30,634 bases of DNA from a virus (taxonomy: Duplodnaviria; Heunggongvirae; Uroviricota; Caudoviricetes), in the IMG/VR virus record IMGVR_UViG_2563366824_000009; one strand, given 5' to 3'. Each line of letters opens with the position of its first letter. Position 1 is the first letter of the stretch. Under the pieces are notes generated by a model, which was not told the DNA's origin, did not search any database, and was given only the letters and a program-made list of their open reading frames with translations. Below are positions 1 to 30,634 of this stretch, one piece after another. Position numbers and translations under genes: made by a program.

Positions 1-172
1 AACACGAGCAAACAGATAAAAAAAGGGCCAGCCAATTGGCCAGCCCTTCTTAACAGGATGTCGCTTAAGCGAAACCTTAGTTAAGACGCTCCTATTAACA
101 CCCCACAACAAACAAATACTTACCATAAAAAACAACTAGTTAAAGTAATTTTTAATGCAGTGAATTGCAGTG

Positions 173-1222
173 TTATGCAACCTCTGCCGCCACATTGTCG
201 CCAACATACAGCGATAACGGATTGAGGGTTACAGCTTGTTCAAGGTGGTCAGGAGCAAAGTGCGCATACTTCATTGTTTCTCGAATATTGGCATGTCCGA
301 GAATTTTCTGCAGCACCAGTATATTCCCTCCGTTCATCATAAAATGCGCACCAAAAGTATGACGCAAAACGTGCGTCTTCTGCCCTTCCGTCAATTCAAT
401 ATTCGTTAGTTTGAGCATCTTTTTAAACTCCTGATAGCAGGGTTTAAACATTCTGCCTTGACGTACGGACAACTCGTCGTACAGCCATTTAGGAATAGGA
501 ACTGTGCGATTCTTCTTACCTTTGGTTTTGGTGAACGTTAGTTTATATGGAGAAAGTTGAGGTCGGGTCAATCTCTCCGCTTCCCCCCATCGAGCCCCGG
601 TTGCAAGGCACACCTTAACAATCATGGTGAGGTCTTCTTTGCCGTATTGCTCGCAGGCTCGAAACAGCTCCGGGAGCTGAGACAAAGTTAGCCAGGACAT
701 TTCTTTCTCAGCTTCTTTGAATACTCGGATCCCATCAAGTGGATTGGGTAGGCTCCACTCCCCTAACCGGCGGAGCTCATTAAACACTGCTTCTAGGTAT
801 TGTTGTTCGCGATTGACGGTTATAGGTTTGGCGATCCATTTCGAGGGGTCTTTATGATAACCATTGTCTATTTCACCACGTAATCGACGGTCACGATAAT
901 GAGCCCAGTCTTTCGCGGTAAGGCGAGATGCAATCGGGTCGCCAAGTCCATTACATACGATTTGAAGCTTTGCAAACCTCGACTTACTGGCGACTAACGC
1001 TTGACCGTGCAAATTGTGCCAAAGCTGAATAATCTCGCTTAAGCGTCGGCGGTCTTCTTTCTTGCCGAGCCACGGCTTATCTTCACTCTCGCTTTTGGTA
1101 AATGCTTCAAATGCCTCGGCCTCACCTTTGGTATTGAATTGCCGACGTATACGCCGCCCTTCTCGACCATTTGGATAGAGTTCACACAACCATTTTCCAC
1201 TTTTTTGTTTACTTACAGTCAT
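173..1222 (-). CDS. int: Tyrosine integrase (P2/186 type)
   Basis: 349 aa; C-terminal tyrosine-recombinase motifs in translation (HVLRHTFGAHF ... LGHANIRETMKYAHF); position at prophage edge next to repressor. Confidence 0.9.
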   Translation of the reverse strand: MTVSKQKSGKWLCELYPNGREGRRIRRQFNTKGEAEAFEAFTKSESEDKPWLGKKEDRRRLSEIIQLWHNLHGQALVASKSRFAKLQIVCNGLGDPIASRLTAKDWAHYRDRRLRGEIDNGYHKDPSKWIAKPITVNREQQYLEAVFNELRRLGEWSLPNPLDGIRVFKEAEKEMSWLTLSQLPELFRACEQYGKEDLTMIVKVCLATGARWGEAERLTRPQLSPYKLTFTKTKGKKNRTVPIPKWLYDELSVRQGRMFKPCYQEFKKMLKLTNIELTEGQKTHVLRHTFGAHFMMNGGNILVLQKILGHANIRETMKYAHFAPDHLEQAVTLNPLSLYVGDNVAAEVA

Positions 1223-1246
1223 TGCGATACCGAGGCTAAAAGAAAA

Positions 1247-1585
1247 TTAATTACAAAGGGCTGTAGCGGCATCAATCACCGGTGAAATTGAAATTTTAAC
1301 GCCGTCATACTCAGGGTCATCCTTCCATACGTCATCTAAGTTAGACCCCTCCAGCTTTCCTGATTTAACAGCATCTACCGCCATGCCATTCAGAGGATAT
1401 CTATCATCAGTTTTGATGTCATACACAAAAGCATAAGCACGGTTAACACATGATACCTTTGCCTTTTCAAAGGTTAGAGGCCACTTGTCACCATATGCAG
1501 CGCCGTCTATCTCTTTAAACTTCTCAGCGGCTATGACTGAGGAAGAAAGTGCAATGCAGACTATCGCAAATATAAACTTTTTCAT
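1247..1585 (-). CDS. Secreted small protein (signal peptide, two Cys), possibly DUF2511/YebY-like; cargo (moron) gene
   Basis: 112 aa; N-terminal MKKFIFAIVCIALSSSVIAAEK looks like a Sec signal peptide; WPLTF...VSCV...YPLNG...ALC pattern; local sequence visibly AT-richer than flanks. Confidence 0.6.
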   Translation of the reverse strand: MKKFIFAIVCIALSSSVIAAEKFKEIDGAAYGDKWPLTFEKAKVSCVNRAYAFVYDIKTDDRYPLNGMAVDAVKSGKLEGSNLDDVWKDDPEYDGVKISISPVIDAATALCN

Positions 1586-1594
1586 TACTGCTCC

Positions 1595-2440
1595 TTAAAC
1601 ATGCTTTTCCAAAGTAAAAATAACCGCACCTGATGGTGTGATATCTGAAATATTACATTCAAACTCAGCAGACTTATTTGATAACCTGACCTTTCCGCCT
1701 GGCAACCTGATTACGTCAAAAACATCGAGTGCGCCATCAATACCAATAAGCCAGCGACCATTTCCTATCTTCGAGTTAGAACTATCAACAAGCCAAGATG
1801 TGCTCACACCATCAATAAACACTAAATCATCAGTATTTGATGGAACCATAGATATATCAGGAGTCCAGCGTCCGATATCTTTGAGTTCGCCCGCCTCGAG
1901 GCGGCACTTTCTAATCGTTAAAGCATTTGCCGGTTCACCATCATTACTGTTACGCATCTGGCCTTTTCCGGTTGATAACCATTCTAACGATACGCCAGTA
2001 TCAAGGGCGCAAGTGACAACCACGTCACCGGGGAAAAAATCGCGTCTAACCCAAGTGCTTATAGTGCCGGAAGATATGCCTAATAAATCTCCAAGCTCTT
2101 TTTGCAGAGTAAAACCATACGCATCGAGAATCCGACGCAGAACCGCCCTCCCTCCATTTGCCATGATTTCATCATAGAGTTGCTTACCTTTAAGCTTAGT
2201 TTTCACCACTTCAAATCTTGCATTTGCAAGCTCACCATTAATTAGCCATCGCAGGTCAGCTCCAGTATCAAGAGCACACTCAACGAAAACGTTGCTAGGG
2301 ATTACGTTTCTAGCAAGCCAGCTACTCACGTTGTTTGCATGTATGCCAAGCCTTTCGGCTAGTTCCTTTTGCTGCTTAAAGCCGTATGCAGAAAGGACAC
2401 GTTCCAATGCGGCAGACGCATTAACATCATTTTTAGACAT
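1595..2440 (-). CDS. Immunity repressor: tandem 186-CI-type HTH domains plus C-terminal S24 (LexA/CI-like) domain
   Basis: Start placed at ATG 2440 (MSKNDV...), not the ORF-track start at 2629; two internally repeated HTH modules (LERVLSAYGFKQQKELAERLGI... and LRRILDAYGFTLQKELGDLLGI...); C-terminus with DISMVP ... GKVRL resembling LexA Ser/Lys region. Confidence 0.7.
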   Translation of the reverse strand: MSKNDVNASAALERVLSAYGFKQQKELAERLGIHANNVSSWLARNVIPSNVFVECALDTGADLRWLINGELANARFEVVKTKLKGKQLYDEIMANGGRAVLRRILDAYGFTLQKELGDLLGISSGTISTWVRRDFFPGDVVVTCALDTGVSLEWLSTGKGQMRNSNDGEPANALTIRKCRLEAGELKDIGRWTPDISMVPSNTDDLVFIDGVSTSWLVDSSNSKIGNGRWLIGIDGALDVFDVIRLPGGKVRLSNKSAEFECNISDITPSGAVIFTLEKHV

Positions 2441-2553: not shown

Positions 2554-2925
2554 ATGTCAGATGCAAAATCAATCTCGACGAATGATTCGCAAAACTCACA
2601 AAATCAAACTGTGCTGTTAGATCCAACACAGTTTGATGCCATCGTTACCGCCATGCTGCCAGCTCTCCAGACAATGATTCGCTCCGCTATGTCAGACACG
2701 ATGACTGTGAAAGACTTCGCCGCTACTCGCGGTGTTAGCGAGCGTCTGGTCTGGCAATGGCTCGATGAGGGAGTCCTTCTCAAAGCTCCGACCAAAGACT
2801 TTTCCAACAAAGAGGAAGCTGCTAAACGAAGCCGAACCCTCGTAAACGTAAAAGCATGGCGCGATAAGCTGACTCAACAAGCGATTGATTGTCGCTACAT
2901 CGACCAGCGCACCGCTCTTAACTGA
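2554..2925 (+). CDS. Excisionase-family HTH DNA-binding protein in Cox/Apl position
   Basis: 123 aa; AGGAGA SD 9 nt upstream; HTH-like segment MTVKDFAATRGVSERLVWQWLDEG; first gene of rightward early operon opposite the repressor. Confidence 0.55.
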   Translation: MSDAKSISTNDSQNSQNQTVLLDPTQFDAIVTAMLPALQTMIRSAMSDTMTVKDFAATRGVSERLVWQWLDEGVLLKAPTKDFSNKEEAAKRSRTLVNVKAWRDKLTQQAIDCRYIDQRTALN

Positions 2926-29468: not shown

Positions 29469-30634
29469 TAACGGGGATGGCAATTGACGCCGGTGCCAGC
29501 CTTGCACCGGCATTTATGTTGACGCTGAACAGCCAGGACATTACCAGCAATTTTAGTGACCGATTGATTTCTCTCACCATGACCGATAACCGGGGTTTTG
29601 AGGCTGACCAGCTCGATATTGAGCTTGATGATACCGACGGGAAAGTTGAGTTACCCCTGCGCGGGGCAGTGCTGACGCTGTGGCTTGGCTGGCAGGGCTC
29701 GGCGTTGCTGAATAAGGGGGATTTTACGGTCGATGAGATTGAGCACCGGGGAGCGCCTGACACCCTGACCATCCGGGCGCGCAGCGCGGACTTTCGCGGC
29801 ACGCTAAATTCCAGGCGTGAAGAGTCATGGCATGACACCACCATCGGAGAACTGGTCAGCACCATCGCAAAACGCAATAAACTGACGGCCAGTGTCGCTG
29901 ATTCACTGAAAAAAATCCCGGTACCGCATATCGACCAGTCGCAGGAGTCCGACGCGGTGTTTCTGACCCGGCTAGCTGACCGAAACGGAGCTGCGGTGTC
30001 AGTGAAAGCGGGGAAATTGCTGTTTCTGAAAGTCGGTAGTGCGATGACGGCCAGCGGCAGACCCATCCCGCAAATGACGCTGACCCGTAGCAATGGTGAC
30101 CGTCATCAATTTGCTATTGCCGACCGTGGGGCTTATACCGGCGTAACGGCAAAATGGTTGCACACCAAAGACCCGAAGCCGCAAAAGCAAAAAGTGACGC
30201 TGAAACGCCAGCCAAAAGAGAAACACCTACGCGCACTGGAGCACCCGAAAGCAAAACCTGTCAGCAAAAAGACAAAGGCCAAAAAAGAGCAGGAGGCTCG
30301 CGAGGGTGAGTATATGGCCGGTGAAGCCGATAACGTGCTGGCGCTGACAACGGTCTACGCATCAAAGGCGCAGGCGATGCGTGCCGCTCAGGCTAAGTGG
30401 GATAAACTGCAGCGAGGCGTTGCGGAGTTTTCAATCACACTGGCGCTAGGGCGAGCGGATTTATTTCCTGAGACGCCTGTACGTGTGTCGGGCTTTAAGC
30501 GCGTCATAGACGAGCAGGCATGGTTAATCAGCAAGGTGACCCACAACCTCAATAATAACGGTTTCACGACGGGCTTAGAGCTTGAGGTTAAACTCTCCGA
30601 TGTGGAGTACAGCTCAGAAGAAAATGAGGAGTGA
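29465..30634 (+). CDS. D: Tail protein D (late control D family)
   Basis: 389 aa (P2 D about 387 aa); last gene of tail cluster; stop at window end. Confidence 0.9.
   Translation: MITGMAIDAGASLAPAFMLTLNSQDITSNFSDRLISLTMTDNRGFEADQLDIELDDTDGKVELPLRGAVLTLWLGWQGSALLNKGDFTVDEIEHRGAPDTLTIRARSADFRGTLNSRREESWHDTTIGELVSTIAKRNKLTASVADSLKKIPVPHIDQSQESDAVFLTRLADRNGAAVSVKAGKLLFLKVGSAMTASGRPIPQMTLTRSNGDRHQFAIADRGAYTGVTAKWLHTKDPKPQKQKVTLKRQPKEKHLRALEHPKAKPVSKKTKAKKEQEAREGEYMAGEADNVLALTTVYASKAQAMRAAQAKWDKLQRGVAEFSITLALGRADLFPETPVRVSGFKRVIDEQAWLISKVTHNLNNNGFTTGLELEVKLSDVEYSSEENEE

Follow-up and report, generated by a model that had tools for sequence, protein, structure and literature searches.

A DUF2511/YebY-family protein encoded between cI and int in the lysogeny module of an Escherichia coli prophage

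In the Escherichia coli prophage described here, the repressor and integrase genes are separated by a gene whose product almost certainly belongs to the DUF2511/YebY/MlbQ family. Its 112-aa precursor is predicted to be exported by the Sec pathway and cleaved after Ala19, leaving in the periplasm an alpha/beta domain of ~10 kDa with a probable Cys46-Cys111 disulfide. The gene had been correctly spotted in an earlier note on this DNA, yet it is ordinary and already annotated, and its family and genomic context are already on record. Here we give an extended description of the gene within the window (the whole stretch analysed, 30,634 nucleotides of IMG/VR record IMGVR_UViG_2563366824_000009) and of its relatives in other phages and prophages. 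Comparison of related loci shows gene-precise cassette exchange that is independent of cI; this cassette behaviour is a small new observation, and it makes functional testing worthwhile.

Gene, precursor and protein family

The features of the region are collected in Table 1. The 112-aa open reading frame that the earlier note had placed at 1247-1585 on the minus strand is confirmed at both ends, with the start codon ATG at 1585-1583 and the stop codon TAA at 1249-1247.

Table 1. Features of the lysogeny region around the DUF2511 gene (positions in the window)
Feature	Position	Strand	Remarks
Terminator-like hairpin, 14-bp stem and T-run	20..51	(-)	host flank, after int
Tyrosine integrase (Int_N + Phage_integrase)	173..1222	(-)	downstream gene in same operon layout
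24-nt spacer, DUF2511 stop to int ATG	1223..1246	(-)	contains GCCTCGGT at 1229-1236
DUF2511/YebY-family CDS, 112 aa	1247..1585, stop codon included	(-)	RefSeq WP_001544857.1, 'DUF2511 domain-containing protein'
Mature domain, codons 20-112, 93 aa, 10.2 kDa, pI 4.6	1250..1528	(-)	holds Trp35, Cys46, Cys111
Sec-type signal peptide MKKFIFAIVCIALSSSVIA, codons 1-19, predicted cleavage between VIA and AEK	1529..1585	(-)	sequence features, conserved cleavage register, low pLDDT
Shine-Dalgarno AAGGAG, 5 nt upstream of ATG	1591..1596	(-)	overlaps cI stop TAA (1595-1597)
cI repressor, 281 aa	1595..2440	(-)	two PF07022 HTH domains + PF16452

From its sequence features, the product is called as carrying an N-terminal Sec signal peptide. 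The n-region MKK is followed by a 15-residue hydrophobic core, FIFAIVCIALSSSVI, with an 11-residue Kyte-Doolittle mean of 2.0-3.0, and by the -3/-1 motif V-I-A ahead of AEK; the cleavage register is shared by 22/22 aligned homologues (e.g. AFS ahead of AEK, ALA ahead of TEK and SFA ahead of VEK). The signal peptide claimed beforehand is thus borne out in its n, h and c regions, in its -3/-1 motif and in a register kept among homologues, whose median pairwise identity is 37% in the signal region versus 63% in the mature part. The precursor has three cysteines, C10 within the signal peptide and C46 (VSCV) and C111 (C-terminal ALCN) in the mature protein, for which the earlier count of two was right. 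A lipoprotein reading of C10 was rejected, as this residue is preceded by A-I-V and there is no lipobox.

The GC content of the open reading frame is 41.9% (7.5th percentile of 339-bp windows), compared with 43.9% in cI, 46.9% in int and 52.3% in the whole window. The gene therefore does lie in an AT-richer block, as had been remarked, but the block is not specific to it, since cI has a similar GC content and a nearly equal GC3 (0.37, against 0.38 in the DUF2511 gene); the AT-rich block consists of cI and the DUF2511 gene together rather than of the DUF2511 gene alone.

The protein matches the Pfam family PF10709 (DUF2511/YebY) with 67.8 bits (cut-off 21, E 1.1e-18) over model positions 5-87 of 87, and the PHROG family phrog_2950, which carries no functional assignment, over its full length (E 3.8e-55). 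Its sole PDB sequence match is E. coli YebY, 7N0J (phmmer, E 3.5e-8), in an alignment that is gap-free over residues 32-111 and that sets C46, C111 and W35 on C48, C113 and W37 of YebY, respectively. W35, C46 and C111 are invariant in family-wide alignments of 60 and 41 sequences, and among 22 phage-clade sequences no change is seen at W35, C46 or Y63, and a single sequence lacks C111. The C-terminal Cys is replaced by W in one homologue, P0009, and truncated versions account for a few database entries. Homologues are 111-115 aa long and conserved over their full length across at least six genera.

An AlphaFold model computed from an alignment of 22 close homologues was poor (pLDDT 65.4) and was replaced by one from a 41-sequence alignment with distant relatives, which reached a mean pLDDT of 88.6, with ~96 over residues 21-110 and ~53 for residues 1-20. 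The low confidence of these first residues ahead of a folded domain beginning at 21-22, together with the periplasmic location of the homologue YebY, supports the signal-peptide call. With Foldseek, the model matched all YebY chains of 7N0J at TM 0.91-0.93 and rmsd 1.1-1.5 A; the only other significant matches were the MlbQ entries 2MVO and 6QFP (E 1.5e-3). The earlier guess of a DUF2511/YebY-like protein has proved correct on the Pfam score, the 7N0J sequence match and the structural superposition alike. The 7N0J fold is a four-stranded antiparallel sheet with surrounding helices (PMC8689200). Foldseek against the BFVD viral structures gave nothing significant (best E 0.25), a search of NCBIfam gave no meaningful family, and PADLOC-DB v2 gave 0 defence-family matches at E <= 0.1.

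Word-indexed homologue searches found no bridge from the phage clade to YebY proper; an exhaustive representative search did bridge the two, with 866 clusters at E <= 1e-3. The phage clade forms a single 50% cluster at 175 bits, with the next best protein at 94 and the YebY-like enterobacterial protein P0055 at 64 bits. Other phage-borne DUF2511 lineages were sought, and 60/60 diverse family members matched PHROG 2950 only, and tblastn of an actinobacterial DUF2511 member returned only the same Eganvirus phages.

YebY is the third gene product of the yobA-yebZ-yebY (AZY) copper-uptake operon of E. coli. It is periplasmic, and there are several lines of evidence for a stabilising Cys48-Cys113 disulfide (PMC8689200). 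The phage protein has the same Pfam family, fold, Sec signal peptide, size, invariant Trp and Cys pair, and its export and disulfide formation are predicted by analogy with YebY; in contrast, it is ~30% identical, belongs to a separate clade, is encoded in a lysogeny operon, and is strongly polymorphic and cassette-swapped. We rejected the candidate of a YebY orthologue of the AZY-operon type, as the gene is flanked by cI and int in every related locus and its product falls outside the enterobacterial YebY cluster.

The fold of YebY matches that of MlbQ, a lipoprotein for self-resistance to a lantibiotic (PMC8689200). Our model has the same DUF2511 fold as MlbQ of Microbispora, at TM 0.49 (2MVO) and 0.71 (6QFP) normalised by target; MlbQ is also extracytoplasmic, and the disulfide is equally placed in the solved MlbQ and YebY structures. 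MlbQ acts in NAI-107 self-resistance, is protective in the producer and has been proposed to bind the lantibiotic NAI-107 (PMC8689200). MlbQ has a lipobox, a long unstructured linker and ABC transporters in its lantibiotic cluster, whereas in the prophage protein a plain signal peptide leads straight into the domain and there is no anchor. A lipoprotein of the MlbQ type was likewise rejected, there being no lipobox in the protein and no lantibiotic/ABC-transporter cluster nearby.

Lysogeny operon, prophage context and distribution

The window is a prophage of E. coli that is integrated just downstream of yfiB and matches strain AST217 at 100% identity over 3.5 kb; positions 1-75 are host flank. 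Its regulatory region, which encodes CII, Fil, gpA, DUF2732 and a DksA-like protein, is of the 186/PSP3 type (Eganvirus). Nucleotide similarity to 186 is absent across the int-to-apl block (76-2956) and restarts at cII.

As had been described, the DUF2511 gene is placed between cI and int on the lysogenic strand, at a distance of 8 nt from cI and 24 nt from int, all three genes being on the same strand. Its AAGGAG is the strongest ribosome-binding site of the cI-DUF2511-int operon. No terminator-like site was found between cI, the DUF2511 gene and int; the hairpin in the host flank is the first minus-strand terminator-like site outside coding sequence downstream of cI, and the others on that strand lie within the cI or int coding sequence. 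The gaps hold no promoter of its own, and the two 9-of-12 matches inside the open reading frame correspond to the shuffle rate. The junction of cI stop and Shine-Dalgarno sequence (TAAGGAG, TAAGGGA or TAAGGAA) is kept in 13/14 compared loci, the exception, L012, having an extra open reading frame between cI and the DUF2511 gene, with the Shine-Dalgarno sequence there following GCCTCGGT. This same octamer is conserved ahead of int in related loci. Because of the short gaps, the strong ribosome-binding site and the lack of a terminator, the gene probably belongs to the lysogenic cI-int transcript, and we consider it likely from this layout that it is read in the order cI, DUF2511, int, as a counterpart of the pL/pE transcript of 186. 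Carried on such a transcript with a strong ribosome-binding site, the protein is expected in the periplasm of all lysogens.

The earlier note rightly took int and the repressor to be neighbours in P2 and 186, and both phages are without the DUF2511 gene: cI and int abut in the annotation of the 186 record and form the lysogenic pL/pE operon, and in P2 the genes C and int are neighbours with no gene between them. The conclusion drawn from this adjacency, that the gene is inserted cargo, does not hold. The gene belongs to the PSP3-type lysogeny module as a constant component, and as the whole 76-2956 block is unmatched in 186, the gene is better regarded as part of an alternative lysogeny module than as cargo in a 186 backbone. 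Conservation as backbone, the possibility set against the cargo reading at the time, is found within the PSP3 subgroup but not across all 186/P2 phages. The gene was also rejected as a textbook moron since it has neither promoter nor terminator of its own, although it does vary between presence and absence among close relatives as a moron would. Its description as a lysogenic-conversion candidate is a reasonable one.

The same gene is present at the same position in PSP3 as gp28/orf28, annotated since the original PSP3 record, and in the order cI, gene, int in SW9, SI22, SEN1, Midge, vB_EcoM-613R3 and RCIP0057. The Midge copy is annotated as 'putative periplasmic protein' and the other phage copies as 'DUF2511 domain-containing protein'. 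These copies are 112 aa long and 62-85% identical in amino acids to the window protein; only the allele distinguishes it from PSP3 gp28 and its phage copies. The gene occurs in every PSP3-type lysogeny module examined, including 8 phages, and in 10/36 phage records sharing any part of the region; it is absent from the Yersinia 186-type phages and EtG as well as from 186 and P2. Prophage copies occupy the same cI-int position in Klebsiella, Enterobacter, Pantoea and metagenome hosts, and Raoultella copies are among the database homologues. Every examined locus has a CI of ~280 aa (278-285 aa) followed by the DUF2511 gene and int, and two HTH domains are on record in CI for most of them.

A pattern scan of genome contigs gave 3 species representatives, which was too few, and the distribution was mapped in complete E. 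coli genomes instead. Of 5,426 such genomes, 124 have a 186-type cII, and 67 of these 124 carry the module. The 99%-identical protein cluster P0001 is found on 919 contigs. The plasmid collection gave one strong match of the phage type, Klebsiella CP125156 at 68.8%, a 5.37-Mb record that is probably a chromosome; distant DUF2511 genes are present on Mycobacterium, Arthrobacter and Salmonella plasmids.

The 2021 YebY paper had already listed the recombinase/CI context, to illustrate that yebY also occurs away from copper operons (PMC8689200). Our literature search found no study or experiment on any phage-borne DUF2511 copy, and comparative papers on the P2/186 regulatory region do not discuss the gene. 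Of two proteomics papers mentioning DUF2511, one has a peptide resembling chromosomal YebY and the other an accession alone, leaving the phage copy unsupported in both.

Allelic divergence and gene replacement

Across 14 loci, no gene of the module diverges more than DUF2511, which has a median amino acid identity of 56% and a median dN/dS of 0.16, compared with 71% and 0.13 for CI, 87% and 0.08 for CII, 91% and 0.03 for Int, and 96% and 0.06 for the Apl-like protein. The low dN/dS shows that the protein is under purifying selection and functional. Sliding-window identity is 97-99% through int, 58-80% from ~1200 to ~2475 (DUF2511 and cI) and 94-100% thereafter. Variable positions of the protein cluster at residues 23-33, 49-51, 57-61, 68-72, 81-85 and 92-109, and the segments WPLTFEKAKVSCVN, AFVYD, RYPLNG and VKSGKxEG are nearly fixed.

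The 43 distinct DUF2511 sequences fall into 9 classes at 80% and 5 classes at 70% mature-domain identity. The window allele belongs to the SW9/SI22-like class, and PSP3, SEN1, 613R3 and Midge carry another (62-66% identity). At >=99% nucleotide identity, the window allele is found in 17 of the 67 module-bearing E. coli genomes; a further 7 are detectable by blastn at 70-72%, and most other alleles lie beyond the reach of blastn. The allele classes cross host genera. Repressor and DUF2511 classes reassort freely: cI class A is paired with DUF classes 1 and 3, class B with 2 and 3, class C with 1 and 2, and class D with 2 and 3.

Two pairs of loci show replacement of the DUF2511 gene alone. L007 and L013 are 99% identical in Int, 94% in CI and 100% in Apl and CII, and their DUF2511 proteins are 46% identical (dS 1.4); L002 and L017 are 99% identical in CI (dS 0.04) and 77% in DUF2511 (dS 1.7). 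The breakpoints between L007 and L013 lie at the cI stop/Shine-Dalgarno junction on one side and at the last five codons and GCCTCGGTG on the other. The octamer GCCTCGGT, at which the allele swaps have their downstream breakpoint, is not claimed as a recombination signal, as the window holds 2 matches against 0.8 expected, which is no enrichment. The cI-int junction also accepts other cargo, which we count for a protective role of the protein: L012 has a second secreted open reading frame of 134 aa between cI and the DUF2511 gene, and L010 a bPH_3/SHOCT gene between the DUF2511 gene and int. Neither of these extra open reading frames matched a defence model in PADLOC.

Possible roles in the lysogen

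We tentatively propose that the DUF2511 product is a protective, immunity-type lysogenic-conversion factor in the periplasm of lysogens, acting in exclusion or in resistance to envelope agents; this is the likeliest of the roles considered, at a probability that falls short of even. The cI-DUF2511-int transcript would be made in the lysogen and the product synthesised alongside the repressor; the precursor would be exported by Sec, cut after Ala19 and folded in the periplasm with its Cys46-Cys111 disulfide. There, the small soluble protein might bind and block a target on the periplasmic side of the envelope, possibly the DNA-entry machinery of an incoming phage, in superinfection exclusion, or alternatively a toxin or peptide that acts on the envelope, as the analogy with MlbQ would suggest. 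Different alleles may then confer different binding specificities.

Such a role is favoured by production together with the repressor and by an evolution like that of conflict loci, with deep alleles, gene-precise swaps and alleles common to different host genera, the last of which disfavours adaptation to a host-specific partner. It is also favoured by the fact that one of the two studied DUF2511 members is an immunity protein, and by the existence of periplasmic blocks to phage DNA entry. Known envelope superinfection-exclusion factors include Sim of P1, which is a processed periplasmic exclusion protein, Sp/Imm of T4 and the Cor/Llp lipoproteins. Similarly, rexAB of lambda is co-transcribed with cI, and P2-like phages have defence hotspots at old, tin and fun/Z. 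Both rexAB and the hotspot genes are non-essential and expressed in the lysogen, as the DUF2511 gene would be, and like it they vary among related phages and are exchanged as cassettes; the P2 hotspots are at a different locus. A periplasmic effector that blocks phage DNA entry is described for HXS (PMC13128918). Like Sim, Sp/Imm and Cor/Llp, it is a small exported protein of a resident element, directed at the envelope against infecting phage. The analogy is one of function only; PADLOC, Foldseek and BFVD gave no sequence or fold relation between these four and the DUF2511 protein.

Several observations count against a protective role. The protein has no defence match in PADLOC and no structural match in BFVD, and its overall dN/dS is well below 1. 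The divergence could partly stem from the hypervariable immunity region beside cI or from import from distant phage lineages, instead of selection acting on the gene itself. Many exclusion proteins are membrane-anchored, and this one looks soluble. YebY, the only close relative studied biochemically, is tied to copper import and not to defence.

That last point leads to the main alternative, which we consider unlikely: the prophage protein would be a YebY-like damper of copper import through the host proteins YebZ (CopD) and YobA (CopC), and would alter the copper load and the copper-dependent mar induction of the lysogen. It is a true homologue of YebY, to which it is 30% identical and with which it shares fold and Cys pair; co-expression of YebY and YebZ lowers cellular copper, YebY has been proposed as a 'safety valve' of import, and Escherichia, Salmonella, Klebsiella and Enterobacter, which also turn up here as host genera, are among the reported carriers of AZY-like operons (PMC11923076). 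Nevertheless, the neighbours of the phage gene are cI and int rather than copC or copD, its clade is separate and tight (175 versus 94 versus 64 bits), and the YebY paper lists the recombinase/CI context as 'unrelated to copper homeostasis' (PMC8689200). Copper binding is, moreover, very slight in oxidised YebY and weak in the reduced form (KD 50-100 uM). A conserved partner such as YebZ would also leave unexplained why alleles are 44-60% identical within one host species and are swapped gene-precisely.

Somewhat less probable still is a passenger or a phage-internal role, in which the protein would have no lysogen phenotype and be kept through its embedding in the cI-int operon. There it might serve to set Int levels, as a spacer or coupler in translation, or have a role in the establishment of lysogeny, its divergence hitch-hiking with the immunity polymorphism of cI. 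The embedding is indeed tight, the gene being set off from its neighbours by 8 and 24 nt and lacking separate regulatory signals; the direct abutment of cI and int in 186 fits a relevance of coupling in the operon; and the gene sits with cI in the only strongly divergent segment of the module, ~1200-2475. However, the protein is under purifying selection (dN/dS ~0.16), with the fold-defining W35, C46 and Y63 invariant and C111 kept in all but one of 22 sequences, its signal peptide and cleavage motif are retained in all alleles, and a spacer has no need of an exported, folded protein. The swaps in which the DUF2511 gene alone is replaced while cI remains 94-99% identical (L007/L013, L002/L017) show that its divergence is not simply linked to cI. 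A chance open reading frame or decaying remnant, for which one could adduce the small size, the Cys-to-W change of P0009 and the few truncated database entries, is refuted by the Pfam and PHROG matches, the constant length of 111-115 aa across at least six genera, the dN/dS of ~0.16, the confident fold and the conserved Shine-Dalgarno sequence. The probability left over belongs to functions beyond those listed.

Taken further, the protective role would give the PSP3-type immunity cassette, in the DUF2511 gene, a second specificity locus that is independent of the first, with allele classes that each neutralise a different incoming agent, for instance the apparatus by which related P2/186-type phages bring in their DNA, or a bacteriocin or peptide aimed at the envelope. 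We regard this extension as speculative and improbable. If it were true, a 'periplasmic shield' would be an ancestral activity shared with MlbQ, which might also explain the restraint of YebZ by YebY, and the protein would represent a new class of superinfection exclusion.

The two studied members of DUF2511 have diverging roles, in copper import (YebY) and in lantibiotic self-resistance (MlbQ), and a third, phage-borne clade, probably made in lysogens and with many natural alleles, offers a convenient genetic handle on the function of the fold. The gene-precise swaps beside cI suggest that immunity is not the only polymorphic trait of the PSP3-type lysogeny module and that a second one is carried with it. 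If this second trait is exclusion or resistance, it would shape competition among common prophages of the Enterobacterales and affect the response of their lysogens to phages or envelope-acting agents.

Cargo genes and allele replacement at the cI-int junction

Comparison of two related loci carrying the PSP3-type lysogeny module, L007 and L013, revealed that the DUF2511 allele located between cI and int was replaced gene-precisely, while the proteins encoded by the rest of the two modules share 94-100% identity. The breakpoint on the cI side falls at the cI stop codon and Shine-Dalgarno sequence (TAAGG) and that on the int side at the last codons together with GCCTCGGTG upstream of int. The motif GCCTCGGT was also found upstream of the DUF2511 gene in L012, the locus with an extra inserted ORF, and is not enriched across the window as a whole.

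This extra ORF, from Escherichia sp. E1V33, encodes a product with a signal peptide (MKRSIFALVLLTSFAVHA...) that had no match in Pfam or PADLOC, and is a predicted second secreted cargo gene at the junction. A further gene, encoding bPH_3 and SHOCT domains and without a PADLOC match, is present in L010, a metagenome contig (SRR21291469_9194). The occurrence of extra genes in both L010 and L012 suggests that the cI-int junction of PSP3-type prophages is a small cargo hotspot.

Locations of features in the window and in related loci
Feature	Location	Strand	Details
Terminator hairpin	window 20-51		14-bp stem; in host flank
int-side breakpoint equivalent	window 1223-1246
cI-side breakpoint equivalent	window 1591-1597
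cI repressor	window 1595-2440	-	281 aa; two tandem PF07022 HTH domains, then PF16452 C-terminal domain
Gene at apl/cox position	window 2554-2925	+	123 aa
Replaced DUF2511 allele	L007:4000-4345; L013:4000-4345
Extra ORF	L012:3570-3974		134 aa; between cI and DUF2511 gene
bPH_3 + SHOCT gene	L010:3924-4424		166 aa; between DUF2511 gene and int

Neighbouring regulatory genes and window ends

The CI repressor of the window has two HTH domains, whereas that of phage 186 is 192 aa long with only one. CI measures 278-285 aa in all loci with the DUF2511 gene, most of which have a recorded pair of HTH domains in this protein. For PsP3 CI, a previous comparative study mentioned only 'a longer C-terminal domain' (PMC3448106). 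The product of the gene at the apl/cox position matched no Pfam family above threshold. Its PsP3 counterpart has been described as a singleton without conserved domains (PMC3448106), and the copy in phage Midge is annotated as Cox via HHpred.

Positions 1-75 of the window are host DNA downstream of yfiB (dgcN-yfiB locus). At the other end, position 30634 coincides exactly with the end of tail gene D at its stop codon, so that ogr/B and the right attachment site lie beyond the window; an att repeat was sought inside the window and none was found.

DUF2511 on actinobacterial plasmids

Distant DUF2511 genes, whose products are 33-35% identical across about 70% of the protein sequence, occur on actinobacterial plasmids (plasmid-collection records H84-H89), namely the pMUM-type plasmids of Mycobacterium ulcerans, liflandii and pseudoshottsii and a plasmid of Arthrobacter sp. 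FB24; the mycolactone plasmids are among the carriers. Because these distant members are plasmid-borne, the DUF2511 family is mobile in further lineages as well.
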